Of a DNA stretch of 2,424 bases, positions 1 through 2,424 are shown piece after piece. The notes below the pieces were generated by a model that saw only the letters and a program-made list of their open reading frames with translations, had not been told where the DNA came from and made no database searches. Origin of the DNA: a virus (Duplodnaviria; Heunggongvirae; Uroviricota; Caudoviricetes); IMG/VR virus record IMGVR_UViG_2695420458_000022; one strand, given 5' to 3'. The stretch's first letter is position 1. Every line of letters starts with the position of its first letter. A program made the position numbers and the translations under genes.

Positions 1-192
1 ATGCACAAAGCATCTCCTGTTGAGTTAAGAACGAGTATCGAGATGGCACATAGCCTTGCTCAAATTGGAATCAGGTTTGTGCCAATACCAGTAGAAACAG
101 ACGAAGAATTTCATACGTTAGCCACATCCCTTTCACAAAAACTGGAAATGATGGTGGCGAAAGCAGAAGCAGATGAGAGAGACCAGGTATGA
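1..192 (+). CDS. Hypothetical small acidic phage protein (63 aa); may be complete or 5'-truncated at the window edge
   Basis: Open frame from position 1 (ATG) to TGA at 190-192. Same strand and tight spacing as downstream genes; its stop overlaps an ATG at 189-191. No family recognised by eye. The window starts exactly on this ATG, so upstream context is not visible. Confidence 0.5.
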   Translation: MHKASPVELRTSIEMAHSLAQIGIRFVPIPVETDEEFHTLATSLSQKLEMMVAKAEADERDQV

Positions 193-272
193 CAACCACT
201 GAATGCATTTTTCTGGCAGCGGGCTTCATATTCTGTGTGCTTATGCTTGCCGACATGGGGCTTGTTCAATGA
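189..272 (+). CDS. Putative 27-aa hydrophobic mini-protein (MTTTECIFLAAGFIFCVLMLADMGLVQ), single predicted transmembrane helix; not in the supplied ORF track
   Basis: ATG 189-191 overlaps the upstream stop TGA 190-192, and its own stop TGA 270-272 overlaps ATG 269-271 of the next gene (double ATGA coupling). Purine-rich GAGAGAGA/AGGT lies just upstream. About 20 consecutive hydrophobic residues. Competes with the alternative 203 start of the next gene. Confidence 0.3.
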   Translation: MTTTECIFLAAGFIFCVLMLADMGLVQ

Positions 273-484
273 CACCTCAGCAAGAAAACGCCCTTCGCAG
301 CATTGCCCGTCAGGCTAATTCTGAAATCAAAAAAGCCAGACAGCAGTTTCCGGATAAAAACGTCGATGACATTTGCCGTAGCGTACTGAAGAAGCACCGC
401 GAAACGGTAACGCTGATGGGATTCACACCGACTCATTTAAGCCTGGCGATCGGCATGTTAAACGGCGTCTTTAAGGAACGGTGA
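269..484 (+). CDS. Hypothetical phage protein, about 72 aa, predicted helical and basic (MTPQQENALRSIARQANSEIKKARQQ...). Alternative start ATG 203 would give the 93-aa form with a Cys/His-rich N-terminus (CAYACRHGAC)
   Basis: Open frame ending TGA 482-484. ATG 269 overlaps the stop of the mini-ORF in an ATGA arrangement. No strong Shine-Dalgarno before either 203 or 269, so start choice is uncertain. No family recognised by eye. Confidence 0.6.
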   Translation: MTPQQENALRSIARQANSEIKKARQQFPDKNVDDICRSVLKKHRETVTLMGFTPTHLSLAIGMLNGVFKER

Positions 485-506
485 GCATGAAAAACAAAAT
501 CATCAT

Positions 507-527
507 GGAGCTACAGGCTCCTTTTTT
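507..527 (+). terminator. Weak terminator-like or attenuator-like hairpin: GGAGC-tacag-GCTCC followed by TTTTTT
   Basis: 5-bp GC-rich stem (507-511 / 517-521), 5-nt loop, then a 6-T run (522-527) in the 98-bp gap between the stop at 484 and the start at 583. The stem is short, and the region is also covered by a possible 29-aa ORF (487-576). Confidence 0.3.
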
Positions 528-582
528 ATTATTCGCATTCACCCTCAAGCGTATTAACCAACAATTCAGGGATTAATGAAAG

Positions 583-804
583 ATGGCAGACATCATTGAT
601 TCAGCATCAGAAATTGAAGAATTACAGCGCAACACAGCAATAAAAATGCGCCGCCTGGACCACCAGGCTATATCTGCCACTCATTGTTGTGAGTGTGGCG
701 ATCCCATAGATGAGCGAAGACGCCTGGCCGTTCAGGGTTGTCGGACTTGTGCAAGTTGCCAGGAAGTTCTGGAGCTTATCAGTAAACAGAGAGGTTCGAA
801 GTGA
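583..804 (+). CDS. TraR/DksA-family C4-type zinc-finger protein (73 aa), phage-type RNA-polymerase secondary-channel regulator
   Basis: Translation contains C35-x2-C38-x17-C56-x2-C59, the exact Cx2Cx17Cx2C spacing of TraR/DksA C4 zinc fingers (nt 685-759), preceded by an acidic and amphipathic N-terminal helix region. Length matches the 73-aa TraR-like proteins of F plasmid and lambdoid phages. Stop TGA 802-804 overlaps the next start. Confidence 0.9.
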   Translation: MADIIDSASEIEELQRNTAIKMRRLDHQAISATHCCECGDPIDERRRLAVQGCRTCASCQEVLELISKQRGSK

Positions 805-1172
805 GCGAAATTAACTCTCAGGCACTGCGTGAAGCGGCAGAGCAGGCAATGCATGACAACTGGGGATTTGACGCGGACCTTTTCCATGAGCTGGTAACAC
901 CATCGATTGTGCTGGCACTGCTGGATGAACGGGAAAGAAACCAGCAATACATCAAACGCCGCGACAAGGAGAACGAGGATATTGCACTAACGGTAGGGAG
1001 GCTGCGCGTTGAGCTGGAAGGCAAACACAGGCGCATTACTGAGCTGACAATGTGGATTAAGCGACTGAGTTCCTCTCTCAAAAACGCAAAACCAGACAGC
1101 AAGTTGCCGGATGACGCAATGATCTGGCTAAATAATGAAGGGCTTACCAGTATAGAGGATATTTTACGATGA
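801..1172 (+). CDS. Coiled-coil phage protein (123 aa), possibly ead/Ea22-like family (assignment tentative)
   Basis: GTG start at 801 overlaps the TraR-like stop (GTGA), with Shine-Dalgarno GAGG at 791-794, 6 nt upstream. An in-frame ATG at 849 is an alternative start. Central heptad-like charged segment (ERERNQQYIKRRDKENEDIALTVGRLRVELEGKHRRITEL). Stop TGA 1170-1172 overlaps the next start. The antisense ORF 818-1102 is Ser-rich low complexity, typical of the opposite strand of a coiled-coil gene. Confidence 0.75.
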   Translation: MSEINSQALREAAEQAMHDNWGFDADLFHELVTPSIVLALLDERERNQQYIKRRDKENEDIALTVGRLRVELEGKHRRITELTMWIKRLSSSLKNAKPDSKLPDDAMIWLNNEGLTSIEDILR

Positions 1173-1816
1173 GCACTTTTACCATGGAATGGCTACAAAA
1201 TACGATTACCAGTATTGAGTCAGCACGAGATGAAATGCCATTCGGACTCGATAACGATCAAGCACACATGCTTACAGCATTTAAAATCGCTCTCGCCTCA
1301 CTGGAACGCGAGCGGGTTCGCCACGAGCATGCCAAATGGTCTGACTCCACATTTGGCTGCGTTGGCCCCATTGGTCCACTGAAACACCTCTCAAAAGAGG
1401 CTCTGGAAGCCGCAGCCGAACCTGACGATCTCAGCGAGTGGGCTGATATGCAGTTCCTGTTGTGGGATGCACAGCGCCGTGCCGGTATCAGTGATGCTGA
1501 AATTACCGCTGCTATGGAAAATAAATTGAAGATCAACATGGAGCGTCAGTGGCCTGAACCAAAAGATGGTGAGCCTCGTTTGCACATTAAAGAACCCGGC
1601 AACTCTCCGGTAACTCCGGATGGTTGGATAAGCTGTAGTGAGCTAATGCCAGATGATGGTCAGCACGTAATTATTTTATGTGATGGCGCATTCGTTCTTT
1701 ATGCGCAATATCGAGACGGAGAGTTTTTCGATATTGTCCGCAATGGTGATGAATTTTTCGAAACACAGAGTCGCAATGTAACCGACTGGATGCAACTACC
1801 AGAACCTCCTCTTTGA
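1169..1816 (+). CDS. Two-domain phage protein (215 aa): N-terminal MazG-like nucleotide pyrophosphohydrolase (DUF550-type, dATP/dGTP diphosphohydrolase-like) fused to C-terminal DUF551
   Basis: ATG 1169 overlaps the upstream stop (ATGA); Shine-Dalgarno AGAGGA at 1154-1159. N-terminal half has a MazG-like acidic helix signature (KEALEAAAEPDDLSEWADMQFLLWDAQRRAGISDAEITAAMENKLKINMERQW, about nt 1400-1552). C-terminal about 60 aa (WISCSELMPDDGQHVIILCDGAFVLYAQYRDGEFFDIVRNGDEFFETQSRNVTDWMQLPEPP, nt 1625-1813) matches the DUF551 pattern with the terminal W-M-x-LPEPP motif. A Pro-rich linker separates the domains. Ends with tandem stops TGA-TAG. Confidence 0.88.
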   Translation: MSTFTMEWLQNTITSIESARDEMPFGLDNDQAHMLTAFKIALASLERERVRHEHAKWSDSTFGCVGPIGPLKHLSKEALEAAAEPDDLSEWADMQFLLWDAQRRAGISDAEITAAMENKLKINMERQWPEPKDGEPRLHIKEPGNSPVTPDGWISCSELMPDDGQHVIILCDGAFVLYAQYRDGEFFDIVRNGDEFFETQSRNVTDWMQLPEPPL

Positions 1817-1912: not shown

Positions 1913-2092
1913 ATGTCTTGTCCAAAATGCGGTTCTGGAAATATTGCAAAAGAAAAAACAATGCGTGGATGGTCTGATGATTATGTGTGCTGCGATTGCG
2001 GATACAACGACTCTAAAGACGTATTTGGAGAGCGTGGTAAAAACGATTTTGTCAAAATTAATAAAGAACGCGAAGGCAACGAAAAAAGCTAA
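1913..2092 (+). CDS. Small Cys4 zinc-ribbon protein (59 aa) with a Lys/Glu-rich C-terminal tail; function unknown
   Basis: Strong Shine-Dalgarno GGAGG at 1901-1905, 7 nt before ATG 1913. Translation MSCPKCGSG...VCCDCGYN gives C3-x2-C6 ... C26-x2-C29, a classic zinc ribbon. The ORF track's 1880 start adds 11 residues with no ribosome-binding site. The overlapping alternative-frame ORF 1872-2111 lacks both RBS and motifs. Separated from the upstream operon by a 96-bp AT-rich spacer. Confidence 0.75.
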   Translation: MSCPKCGSGNIAKEKTMRGWSDDYVCCDCGYNDSKDVFGERGKNDFVKINKEREGNEKS

Positions 2093-2155: not shown

Positions 2156-2180
2156 AAGCCGCCTGATGGCGGTTTTTTCT
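2156..2180 (+). terminator. Rho-independent (intrinsic) terminator
   Basis: GC-rich stem CCGCC (2159-2163) / GGCGG (2168-2172) with 4-nt loop TGAT, extendable by a G-U and two A-U pairs, followed immediately by TTTTTTCT (2173-2180). Located 64 nt after the zinc-ribbon gene stop and 44 nt before the next start. Confidence 0.75.
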
Positions 2181-2223: not shown

Positions 2224-2424
2224 ATGCAACACGAACTACAACCTGATTCACTGGTTGATTTGAAATTCATCATGGCCGATACTGGCTTTGGTAAAACCTT
2301 CATCTACGACCGGATTAAGTCCGGCGACCTGCCAAAAGCCAAAGTTATCCACGGTCGAGCAAGATGGTTATATCGTGACCATTGTGAATTCAAAAATAAG
2401 CTCTTAAGCCGCGCCAATGGGTAA
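2224..2424 (+). CDS. AlpA-family phage transcriptional regulator / excisionase-like (Xis/Vis-type) protein (66 aa)
   Basis: Shine-Dalgarno GGAGA at 2211-2215, 8 nt before ATG 2224. Translation carries the AlpA-type helix-turn-helix signature (DLKFIMADTGFGKTFIYDRIKSGDLPKAKVIHGRARWLYRDH, matching the family pattern TG-x-S/G-x3-IY-x2-I-x2-G-x-F/LP-x-P/A-x4-G-x-R-x2-W). Size is typical for the family. Stop TAA at 2422-2424. Confidence 0.85.
   Translation: MQHELQPDSLVDLKFIMADTGFGKTFIYDRIKSGDLPKAKVIHGRARWLYRDHCEFKNKLLSRANG

Follow-up and report, generated by a model that had tools for sequence, protein, structure and literature searches.

A mosaic orf73–ea22–DUF550 stretch in the exo–xis region of a lambdoid Escherichia coli prophage, with four-nucleotide overlaps that probably reflect ordinary operon packing

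The DNA analysed here, called the window throughout, is a stretch of 2,424 nucleotides from the IMG/VR virus record IMGVR_UViG_2695420458_000022. To judge from its sequence, the window belongs to a lambdoid E. coli prophage and corresponds to the exo–xis portion of its early-left (pL) operon. In megablast searches, lambda and many Stx and lambdoid phages matched positions 1–1018 and ~1830–2192, and the lambda map around the match reads exo-orf60a-orf63-orf61-(orf73)-ea22-ea8.5-xis-int. The gene order of the window is also annotated in E. coli by RefSeq, and the three central genes, referred to below as genes 1 to 3, already carry RefSeq names. The context genes within 1–484 are 95–100% identical to lambda and related loci. 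RefSeq gives the name ‘Eag protein’ to the coding sequence in the ea8.5 position. All features are listed in Table 1. A search for internal promoters or terminators on the + strand of 583–1816 found none, and Rfam returned nothing above threshold, the sole match (STnc130, E = 0.99) lying on the minus strand. By homology to lambda, the exo–xis region would be expressed on the leftward transcript from pL, early after infection or induction.

Table 1. Positions of genes, domains and junctions in the window.
Feature	Positions	Strand	Details
orf63 (DUF1382)	1–192	+	Pfam PF07131, E = 3e-31
27-codon ORF	189–272	+	Between orf63 and the orf61-like gene
orf61-like gene	269–484	+	Chained by ATGA overlaps with orf63 and the 27-codon ORF
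Gene 1, orf73; TraR/DksA-family C4 zinc-finger protein, lambda Orf73 orthologue	583–804	+	73 aa, ATG start, TGA stop 802–804
GTGA stop/start overlap, orf73/ea22	801–804	+	Read from the sequence
Gene 2, ea22 short allele	801–1172	+	123 aa, GTG start 801, TGA stop 1170–1172
Rare mosaic cassette	1017–1318	+	Gene 2 tail (codons 73–123), ATGA junction, gene 3 leader (codons 1–50)
ATGA stop/start overlap, ea22/gene 3	1169–1172	+	Read from the sequence
Gene 3; helical leader, MazG-fold PF04447 (formerly DUF550) and DUF551	1169–1816	+	215 aa, ATG start 1169
PF04447 core of gene 3	1319–1603	+	Residues 51–145; acidic motif E77xxE80...E90xxD93; Pfam E = 4.5e-42
DUF551 C-terminal domain of gene 3, small all-beta portable domain	1622–1810	+	Residues 152–214; Pfam PF04448, E = 1.5e-17
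Small zinc-ribbon protein in lambda ea8.5 position	1913–2092	+	PHROG 2945, E = 5e-30; DNA matches lambda
Excisionase	2224–2424	+	66/66 residues identical to TorI of the K-12 CPS-53/KplE1 prophage

An earlier note on this DNA had described genes 1 to 3 as a TraR-like zinc-finger protein, a coiled-coil protein and a MazG-like/DUF551 fusion, and all three descriptions were borne out. The gene 1 product shares 70 of its 73 residues (96%) with lambda Orf73, from which it differs by the substitutions D26N, A49V and V62D. It matched Pfam PF01258 (zf-dskA_traR; E = 1.4e-8, 35 bits against a cut-off of 24.9) and PHROG 54, ‘DksA-like zinc-finger protein’ (E = 6.5e-25). The zinc finger has the arrangement C35xxC38-x17-C56xxC59, with the additional Cys36 and Cys53 as in lambda Orf73, and the DxxDxA motif of the N-terminal helix, which reaches the RNA polymerase active site (PMC9239242), is present as D3-I-I-D6-S-A8. 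For lambda Orf73, RNA polymerase binding and inhibition of rRNA and ribosomal-protein promoters have been demonstrated experimentally (PMC9239242). The lambda protein binds in the secondary channel of RNA polymerase without ppGpp, shuts these promoters down, slows host growth and raises the phage yield ~4-fold; given the 96% identity, the gene 1 product would be expected to do the same. The link to alarmones suggested in the earlier note is unnecessary, because TraR is reported to need no ppGpp for full activity. Some cooperation among neighbouring genes is nevertheless possible, since older genetics tied orf73, ea22, ea8.5 and orf55 jointly to inhibition of host replication initiation.

Gene 2 encodes an Ea22-family protein with a predicted long helix. 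It matched Pfam PF13935 (Ead_Ea22) over residues 2–79 (E = 2.4e-21, 77 bits against a cut-off of 27) and is 86% identical to lambda Ea22 over residues 1–81; beyond this point there is no similarity. The AF2 model consists of one long helix (residues 34–94) and a low-confidence tail. A globular C-terminal domain is absent from this model, in which the 29 residues past the helix form two short helices with pLDDT values of 46–65, and the gene 2 protein lacks similarity to the C-terminal domain of lambda Ea22, which is globular, dimeric and acidic in the family. Contigs with an exact or near-exact copy of the protein number from hundreds to more than 1,000. The tail, which varies very little, follows at least eight different N-terminal variants; it is also found at the C-terminus of proteins from other families (PHROG 660 and 924), and when its 51 residues alone were used as a protein query, one partial protein was returned. 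The mosaic nature of Ea22 has been published, including the Stx-phage variants V1–V3, and the C-terminal domain of Ea22_V2 is a DUF551 (PMC10834534). Ea22 forms tetramers at full length, and its isolated C-terminal domain is inactive; the pro-lysogenic activity and the tetramer are known for the lambda and Stx-phage proteins only. The 123-residue protein keeps the N-terminal segment conserved in this pro-lysogenic family, together with its oligomerising coiled coil, and lacks the variable C-terminal domain.

In gene 3, the match to PF04447 covers profile positions 2–96 of 97 (142.7 bits against a cut-off of 23), and the protein has the four-helix arrangement of the MazG fold. The acidic motif is intact: E77, E80, E90 and D93 line up with the EExxE...ExxD motif of MazZ, and conservation at each of the four positions is at least 90% among 91 diverse homologues. 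Sequence identity within the core is 94–100% in nearly all loci of the E. coli type, 80% in the divergent loci L069 and L070, and 75–100% across 26 core-bearing loci from a scan of one genome per species, with variable flanks. Proteins containing DUF550 range in architecture from 108 to 457 residues, and ~9% of complete E. coli genomes contain the core. The DUF551 domain (64.6 bits against a cut-off of 22) has six predicted strands, and the C-terminal sequence TDWMQLPEPPL fits the W-x-P-L/M-P-x-P-P-like ending of the family. An identical DUF551 is carried by a DUF550-free protein in another locus (L114), and the domain is also present in YfdS. Foldseek returned weak Tudor/SH3-like matches only (probability ≤0.6, E >0.2), so that no function can be derived from the fold. 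DUF551 recurs beside or fused to nucleotide hydrolases (YfdR/YfdS and gene 3) and as a C-terminal domain of Ea22.

The gene 3 product is most likely a Mg2+-dependent (d)NTP pyrophosphohydrolase predicted to trim the nucleotide pool. The best guess for its substrates would be dATP and dGTP, by analogy with the only characterised PF04447 member; dATP/dGTP pyrophosphohydrolase activity is reported only for an Acinetobacter phage fusion protein, and our literature search found no characterised MazG-fold PF04447 enzyme of enterobacterial prophages. DUF551 would presumably serve as a portable targeting or interaction module. Homology of the gene 3 leader to the N-terminus of Ea22 (‘VLALLDERER’ versus ‘IALASLERER’) was considered and rejected (hhalign probability 0.9%). 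A Z-genome (2-aminoadenine) pathway was likewise rejected, since purZ, datZ and dpoZ were seen neither in the window nor in those annotated prophage regions that were retrieved.

The three open reading frames (583–804, 801–1172 and 1169–1816) are real, and the GTGA and ATGA overlaps between them, each 4 nt long, lie exactly where the earlier note had placed them. Shine–Dalgarno-like sequences are present 6 nt upstream of the gene 2 GTG (GAGAGG, 789–794) and 9 nt upstream of the gene 3 ATG (GAGGA, 1155–1159). Outside the trio, the window contains further same-strand overlaps of the same length (ATGA at 189–192, ATGA at 269–272 and GTGA at 481–484). With five such overlaps in the window, overlap is therefore the norm of this operon, and the lambda pairs bet/exo and exo/orf60a also overlap by 4 nt. 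The GTGA junction was present at all 107 orf73 copies of the fetched loci, lambda included, and was still there in the 22 loci in which ea22 is reduced to five codons. From these sequence comparisons, the GTGA at 801–804 is the fixed ancestral orf73/ea22 junction of lambda. At the gene 3 junction, among 80 loci, the DUF550 gene overlapped the upstream gene by 4 nt in 18, followed it after a gap of 1–10 nt in 60 and after a larger gap in one, and thus lay within 10 nt of its neighbour in 78 of the 80, whichever gene preceded it.

The RNA around the two junctions was no more stably folded than its shuffled versions (z = +0.47 and −1.19), giving no sign of the sequestration of a ribosome binding site that would make coupling obligatory, and the overlaps may permit some reinitiation. 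Stoichiometrically linked expression, which had been read from the overlaps, is not implied, since the ea22 transcript is reported at levels very unlike those of the remaining exo–xis genes (PMC10834534). The caveat attached to that reading, that unrelated early genes of phages are often coupled too, is the correct one. We also considered whether genes 2 and 3 might be a single frameshifted gene. This was rejected: the two lie in different frames, meet at a clean ATGA junction and are intact on hundreds of contigs. A fused gene 2/gene 3 protein (P0065) was found on a single contig and has a different junction.

Co-occurrence of the three genes was counted in 5,426 complete E. coli genomes, in 77 viral loci seeded with orf73 and 80 seeded with DUF550, and in a set of 28 loci from the one-genome-per-species scan, mostly from other Enterobacterales. 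The complete E. coli genomes held orf73 in 4,715 places and the DUF550 core in 533, and the trio was found in 44 genomes. At most 11% of the orf73 copies can lie near a DUF550 core, because of this difference in number (533 versus 4,715). A DUF550 gene was found downstream of orf73 in 11 of the 77 orf73-seeded loci, and orf73 upstream of DUF550 in 27 of the 80 DUF550-seeded loci. In the species set, a TraR-like gene was upstream in 7 of 28 loci and was never adjacent in the six outside the E. coli-type locus. In phage ev017, ea22 and the DUF550 gene are three genes apart. Across these related elements, the three genes did not co-occur in one order with conserved junctions, and their neighbours varied. 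The earlier note had named homologues that routinely occur apart or shuffled as the outcome that would refute a conserved trio, and this is what was found. The region itself is known and already annotated; what is new in the trio is its combination of alleles.

Mosaic breakpoints near 850, 910, 1020, 1280, 1650 and 1780 fall within genes, genes 2 and 3 among them. Between two of the conserved islands lies a cassette made up of the gene 2 tail, the ATGA junction and the gene 3 leader (Table 1). At ≥88% identity, this cassette occurred in 12–16 of the 80 and in 4 of the 77 related loci, while its flanks were common. The whole cassette was present in 55 of the 5,426 E. coli genomes, and its leader half alone in ~480. 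Loci L069 and L070 carry a diverged copy (55% and 52% identity) that keeps the 4-nt overlap. The tail was found without the leader directly downstream in one of 539 matching E. coli genomes, as a 46-nt fragment. The leader also occurs as a free 81-residue protein, and in strain E308, where no gene with the tail lies upstream, a DUF550 protein carries a leader 92% identical to that of gene 3. Ea22-like N-termini fused to DUF550 were seen in P0121, P0136, P0065 and L187, two of these fusions deleting the coiled coil. The ATGA junction would sit inside this small cassette, whose parts would move together because the sites of recombination are the conserved islands on its two sides, namely the coiled-coil segment of Ea22 and the core of DUF550.

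Taken together, we favour an explanation, to which we assign a probability of roughly 0.8 as a whole, in which bases 583–1816 are the orf73–ea22 stretch of the exo–xis accessory region of a lambda-like E. coli prophage, and the 4-nt overlaps are the ordinary tight packing of the operon and not the marker of a functional unit. The three genes would be independent, separately exchangeable modules, joined by recombination in this lineage. Four facts count against this explanation because they also fit a partnership between genes 2 and 3, namely the linkage of tail and leader, the diverged cassette copy, the fusions, and Ea22_V2.

Other readings were weighed against it. That the trio forms one translationally coupled host-takeover or anti-defence module, with Orf73 acting on RNA polymerase and the MazG-like enzyme on the (d)NTP or alarmone pool, is highly improbable, even though the overlaps and domain assignments it builds on are real, one early operon holds all three genes, and the block with orf73 and ea22 has been linked to inhibition of host replication initiation. 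A functionally linked module was not borne out by the counts (44 of 5,426 genomes with the trio, against 4,715 orf73 and 533 DUF550 places); the genes are routinely apart or have others between them, and overlaps of the same kind also connect unrelated genes all along the operon. TraR-type proteins are reported to act without ppGpp, the ea22 transcript levels are unlike those of its neighbours, and the junctions have no RNA structure. A search with PADLOC gave no meaningful match to defence systems, and the defence or anti-defence assignment was rejected on that account. A narrower reading leaves out orf73 and takes genes 2 and 3 as the two parts of a split Ea22. Here the coiled-coil protein would have lost its own C-terminal domain, and its tail would dock the leader, so that a tetrameric scaffold carries the hydrolase and DUF551 in the way it would carry a fused C-terminal domain of Ea22. 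Tail and leader do travel together; the ATGA overlap, tail and leader are kept in a pair that has diverged to ~50% identity, and the tail is nearly invariant in spite of the many N-terminal variants. Ea22-like N-termini fused to DUF550, the DUF551 ending of Ea22_V2, and the tetrameric state of full-length Ea22 with its inactive isolated C-terminal domain point the same way. However, the two halves of a 300-bp cassette with recombination hot spots on either side should stay linked even if they had no function, the leader occurs without the tail in E308 and in ~480 genomes as well as in free form, and the tail is found on PHROG 660 and 924 proteins. The tail is also modelled at low confidence, and the coiled coil is deleted in two fusions. 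We therefore give this reading only a small chance of being right. Its more specific form, in which the 45-residue tail of gene 2 and the two-helix leader of gene 3 are a docking pair and the tetrameric Ea22 scaffold receives its ‘C-terminal domain’ in cis, like lambda Ea22 and (with DUF551) Ea22_V2, or in trans from the gene that follows, has a very slim one; if true, it would tie the pro-lysogenic function of Ea22 to local control of the dNTP pool or of replication initiation, parallel to YfdR/YfdS of K-12.

The last alternative concerns gene 3 alone, which might act like yfdR–yfdS to damp host replication initiation or adjust the dNTP supply under stress, independently of orf73 and ea22. 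The excisionase of the window is 100% identical to TorI, and the slot upstream of torI in K-12 is occupied by yfdR, encoding an HD-type, YfbR-like 5'-deoxynucleotidase, which overlaps yfdS with its DUF551. Extra copies of yfdQRS or yfdQRT are published to inhibit replication initiation, as is the binding of YfdR to DnaA, and both YfbR-like (DatZ) and DUF550 (MazZ-type) enzymes manage dNTP pools in Z-genome phages. On the other hand, the DUF551 domains resemble each other only weakly (BLASTP E = 0.047; YfdS scores 22.2 bits in Pfam against a cut-off of 22), YfdR scores just below its Pfam cut-off, deletion of yfdQRST has no replication phenotype according to published work, and the two enzymes are not homologous. 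On balance this parallel is unlikely to hold.

The main value of the result is negative: the trio, a recombinant version of an accessory region long known from lambda, should not be pursued as a candidate for a new system of host takeover or anti-defence. It illustrates clearly that 4-nt overlaps between early genes of phages reflect packing and conserved gene-boundary sequences, not functional linkage, and that highly conserved domain cores, here those of DUF550 and of the coiled-coil segment of Ea22, act as recombination anchors that shuffle protein domains. The PF04447 enzymes of enterobacterial prophages and the recurrence of DUF551 are modest leads, and a gene 2/gene 3 pairing and the K-12 parallel are possible ones.

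Compared with the exo–xis region of lambda (orf60a-orf63-orf61-orf73-ea22-ea8.5), the window has the same order and near-identical DNA over the two matching segments, shares the GTGA orf73/ea22 junction and is likewise a non-essential early accessory region. It differs in that the C-terminal half of ea22 is replaced, that a DUF550–DUF551 gene absent from lambda lies between ea22 and the gene in the ea8.5 position, and that the excisionase is of the TorI type, whereas lambda has Xis. Gene 1 resembles lambda Orf73 and TraR of the F plasmid in the DxxDxA tip motif, the C4 zinc finger, the two extra cysteines and a basic RRR patch. The Ea22 proteins of lambda and of Stx-phage variants V1–V3 have in common the N-terminal segment, the coiled coil (Ead_Ea22 signature, IPR025153/PF13935) and a mosaic C-terminus; lambda Ea22 has 182 residues with its globular C-terminal domain, while gene 2 ends after 123, in a 45-residue tail, and this allele does not appear among the variants that the text of PMC10834534 describes. 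The similarity of gene 3 to MazZ of cyanophage S-2L (PDB 7ODY) is marginal (E = 0.53), and no purZ, datZ or other Z-genome context was seen in the window or in those annotated prophage regions that were retrieved. In Acinetobacter phage SH-Ab 15497 the protein is a DUF5664–DUF550 fusion; in gene 3 the domain is fused to DUF551 instead. In CPS-53 of K-12, yfdR–yfdS likewise combines a nucleotide hydrolase with DUF551, in overlapping frames just upstream of an identical torI. There, however, the hydrolase has an HD domain and the two functions are on separate proteins, in contrast to the MazG fold and single protein of gene 3, and the DUF551 domains of YfdS and gene 3 are only distantly related.

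The earlier note had read three genes, here orf73 (gene 1), a short ea22 allele (gene 2) and a DUF550-DUF551 gene (gene 3), as translationally coupled, and had raised a host-takeover or anti-defence module as a hypothesis only. The domain-level reading of these genes is right, but the module-level reading of 583–1816 is not supported. The + strand of the window is a run of closely packed ORFs. By Megablast against phage genomes, lambda, HK630, DE3 and many Stx-converting phages matched at ~96–97% identity over 1–1018 and about 1830–2192, and no phage record spanned 80% of the window. The region itself is known and already annotated, and 583–1816 in this window is a new combination of alleles. 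One record, MW057783.1 "Campylobacter phage CJLB-4", matches like lambda (96.6% over the same segments) and is probably mislabelled.

Features of the window, and its coverage at ≥88% identity by related loci (80 seeded by gene 3, 77 seeded by orf73)
Feature	Position	Strand	Basis or remark	Coverage
orf63 / DUF1382	1–192	+	ORF reading	
27-codon hydrophobic ORF	189–272	+	ORF reading; MTTTECIFLAAGFIFCVLMLADMGLVQ	
orf61-like gene	269–484	+	ORF reading	
31-codon ORF	481–576	+	ORF reading; probably not a gene	
Terminator-like hairpin with T-run	507–530	+	GGAGCTACAGGCTCC TTTTTTATT	
Gene 1	583–804	+	ORF reading	
Gene 2	801–1172	+	ORF reading	
Gene 3	1169–1816	+	ORF reading	
Zinc-ribbon gene, ea8.5 position of lambda	1913–2092	+	ORF reading	
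Strong terminator-like hairpin with T-run	2156–2175	+	within island 2120–2192	
Excisionase	2224–2424	+	ORF reading	
orf63 to orf73 and first ea22 codons	1 to about 850		mosaic map	common among loci
Ea22 coiled-coil segment	910–1020		mosaic map	58/80 and 45/77
Gene 2 tail, ATGA junction, gene 3 leader	1020–1280		mosaic map	12–16/80 and 4/77
DUF550 core	1280–1650		mosaic map	78/80
DUF551 variant of the window	1650–1780		mosaic map	9–18/80

The assignments made for the individual proteins all held up. Gene 1, described as a TraR-like secondary-channel binder, is identical to lambda Orf73 at 70 of 73 residues and shows the features described for Orf73, namely a DxxDxA tip motif, a CxxC-x17-CxxC zinc finger and two extra cysteines. 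In work by Gopalkrishnan et al. [quoted passage not shown] The family is reported to act without ppGpp. The label was thus right, and experiments already stand behind it.

Gene 2, described as a coiled-coil protein, belongs to the Ead_Ea22 family in Pfam; Ea22 itself is reported to be pro-lysogenic and tetrameric. Residues 1–81 are 86% identical to lambda Ea22, with no relation beyond. The AlphaFold model shows one long helix (34–94) and, after it, a tail of ~30 residues modelled at low confidence; it has no globular domain at the C-terminus. PMC10834534 describes Ea22 as a mosaic that combines a conserved N-terminal segment and coiled coil with exchangeable C-terminal domains. The 123-aa allele is frequent, with individual sequences on hundreds to >1,000 contigs, and its tail, almost invariant, follows at least eight distinct N-terminal variants. 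PHROG 660 and 924 match the tail (1017–1169) at their own C-terminus and gene 3 segments (1169–1813) near their N-terminus, which makes the tail a portable C-terminal module found outside Ea22 as well.

In gene 3, described as a MazG-like protein with DUF551, residues 51–145 match PF04447 (E 4.5e-42; once DUF550, now named dATP/dGTP pyrophosphohydrolase) and residues 152–214 match DUF551. A 91-sequence alignment yielded a confident model (pLDDT 88.4) in which five helices precede a beta domain of six strands; for the latter, DUF551, only weak, Tudor/SH3-like fold matches were found. A predicted metal-ligand motif, E77xxE80...E90xxD93, is kept in at least 90% of the homologues in that alignment and aligns with the MazZ acidic residues. 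The biochemistry of PF04447 comes solely from a DUF5664-DUF550 protein encoded by Acinetobacter phage SH-Ab 15497; its substrates are dATP and dGTP, and its products are dNMP and PPi. We rejected a Z-genome pathway for gene 3, because neither the window nor the annotated prophage regions that were fetched showed any Z-genome genes. The leader type of gene 3 (MSTLTKEWLLQ...LALSVLEAR) was also seen as a small protein of ~81 aa (L170:5383–5628, L179:7124–7444, Buttiauxella and Dryocola prophage regions).

Every part of the window was mapped onto the 80 IMG/VR loci seeded by gene 3, the 77 further loci seeded by orf73, and 28 loci from one genome per species, mainly from other Enterobacterales; three of these records bear the label Segatella or Chryseobacterium. 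(L160 and L184, JAJXBQ01 contigs binned in a "Segatella copri" MAG, are E. coli-prophage contigs, and L163, whose label is Chryseobacterium, is almost the same as a Scandinavium locus; all are probably mislabelled.) The order of the three genes was not conserved across these loci. The DUF550 core lay downstream in 11 of the 77 orf73-seeded loci; most of the orf73-seeded loci have an Ea22 gene only, and 22 have ea22 shortened to five codons. In 27 of the 80 DUF550-seeded loci, orf73 lay upstream. Among the 28 species loci, a TraR-like gene was upstream in seven: in L160, which is an E. coli-type contig, and in six others, where it was never adjacent. The upstream neighbours of DUF550 in the species loci included recombination, methylase and PAPS-reductase-like genes, and phage ev017 has three genes between ea22 and the DUF550 gene. 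Among 5,426 complete E. coli genomes, orf73 was found at 4,715 places (3,316 genomes) and the DUF550 core at 533 places (509 genomes), whereas the whole trio (≥80% of 583–1816) was found in 44 genomes and the tail-plus-leader cassette in 55. Homologues routinely found apart or in shuffled order were what the earlier note had named as refuting its reading, and this is the pattern obtained.

The overlaps, GTGA at 801–804 and ATGA at 1169–1172, were confirmed exactly, with Shine–Dalgarno-like motifs before gene 2 (GAGAGG, 789–794) and gene 3 (GAGGA, 1155–1159). Three further 4-nt overlaps lie upstream (189–192, 269–272 and 481–484), and the RNA folds at both junctions are unremarkable. Each of the 107 orf73 copies examined, that of lambda among them, has the GTGA junction, and in 78 of 80 loci the DUF550 gene either overlaps the preceding gene or begins no more than 10 nt from it; the overlap is therefore a property of operon gene boundaries, not of the trio. 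The preceding genes range from Ea22 alleles of 123–316 aa to more than 12 unrelated ORFs. In the data published in PMC10834534, ea22 transcript levels diverge from those of the other exo-xis genes, so the linked stoichiometry that the earlier note drew from the overlaps is not implied.

The coverage map, with its conserved islands and rare cassettes, places breakpoints within genes 2 and 3; the second overlap falls in a small cassette between recombination anchors. The unusually conserved DUF550 core (1319–1606) behaves as such an anchor for domain shuffling. Its amino-acid identity is 94–100% in nearly every E. coli prophage locus, drops to 80% in the divergent pair L069/L070, and ranges from 75 to 100% over the 26 species loci that bear the core; it sits N-terminally, centrally or C-terminally in proteins of 108–457 aa with varying attached parts. 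Insertions between the modules occur, and L114 carries an identical DUF551 on a protein without DUF550. Boundary sequences recur among otherwise unrelated genes upstream of the DUF550 gene (L013–L077) and in L114 and L122: a Shine–Dalgarno-containing stretch translated "...AFASKES(E/D)M", and a C-terminal "...GIRIKGE*" shared by an Ea22 allele, a protein that resembles the C-terminal region of lambda Ea22, and another with weak likeness to Mom. These look like linkers driving module exchange in lambdoid phages.

A specific relationship between genes 2 and 3 was also considered. In E. coli, a single case was seen of the tail with no leader directly downstream, a 46-nt fragment, and in L069/L070 the pair has diverged to about 50% identity while retaining both parts and the overlap. 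Single ORFs occasionally fuse an Ea22-like N-terminus to DUF550 (P0121, P0136, P0065 and L187:3611–4299), and the C-terminal end of variant Ea22_V2 is DUF551, according to PMC10834534. However, about 480 E. coli genomes have the leader without a tail-bearing neighbour; in strain E308, the same leader (92% identical) likewise has no tail-bearing neighbour. A free protein of 81 aa consists of the leader by itself, the tail ends other phage protein families, and physical linkage within a 300-bp cassette is explicable without function. We consider such a relationship improbable. In P0121 and P0136, the fusion joint lies at the Ea22 "LALLD" motif, abutting the leader "ASLERE" in P0136 and continuing into the core "EALEAAA" in P0121; these sequences suggest microhomology-mediated recombination. 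In P0121 the first half of the hydrolase domain is missing.

The hairpin at 507–530 falls within the leftward operon, in the 31-codon ORF that separates orf61 from orf73; it may be a known lambda tL terminator. To the right, the island at 2120–2192 is kept in about 42/80 and 42/77 loci, more widely than the flanking genes, and most E. coli matches to the window stop at 2178–2192. It looks like a recombination joint between a lambda-like left part and a TorI-type excisionase. The entire window was covered in one complete genome only (MS 119-7), where an IS3 element interrupts the region.

At the left end, ATGA overlaps link the 27-codon ORF to orf63 upstream and the orf61-like gene downstream; it is unbroken in 74 related loci, which are too alike to prove coding. 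The arrangement differs in lambda, where the annotated orf61 spans this stretch and the orf61-like frame appears split. At the right end, the excisionase (likewise L191:6311–6511) is 100% identical to TorI, which in the K-12 cryptic prophage CPS-53/KplE1 is both the excisionase and an inhibitor of the Tor response regulator. In CPS-53, yfdR (an HD-type 5'-deoxynucleotidase) overlaps yfdS (DUF551) directly upstream of the identical torI, and extra copies of yfdQRS or yfdQRT are reported to inhibit replication initiation. This parallel suggests that DUF551 accompanies nucleotide hydrolases, but the DUF551 of the window and that of YfdS are only weakly similar.
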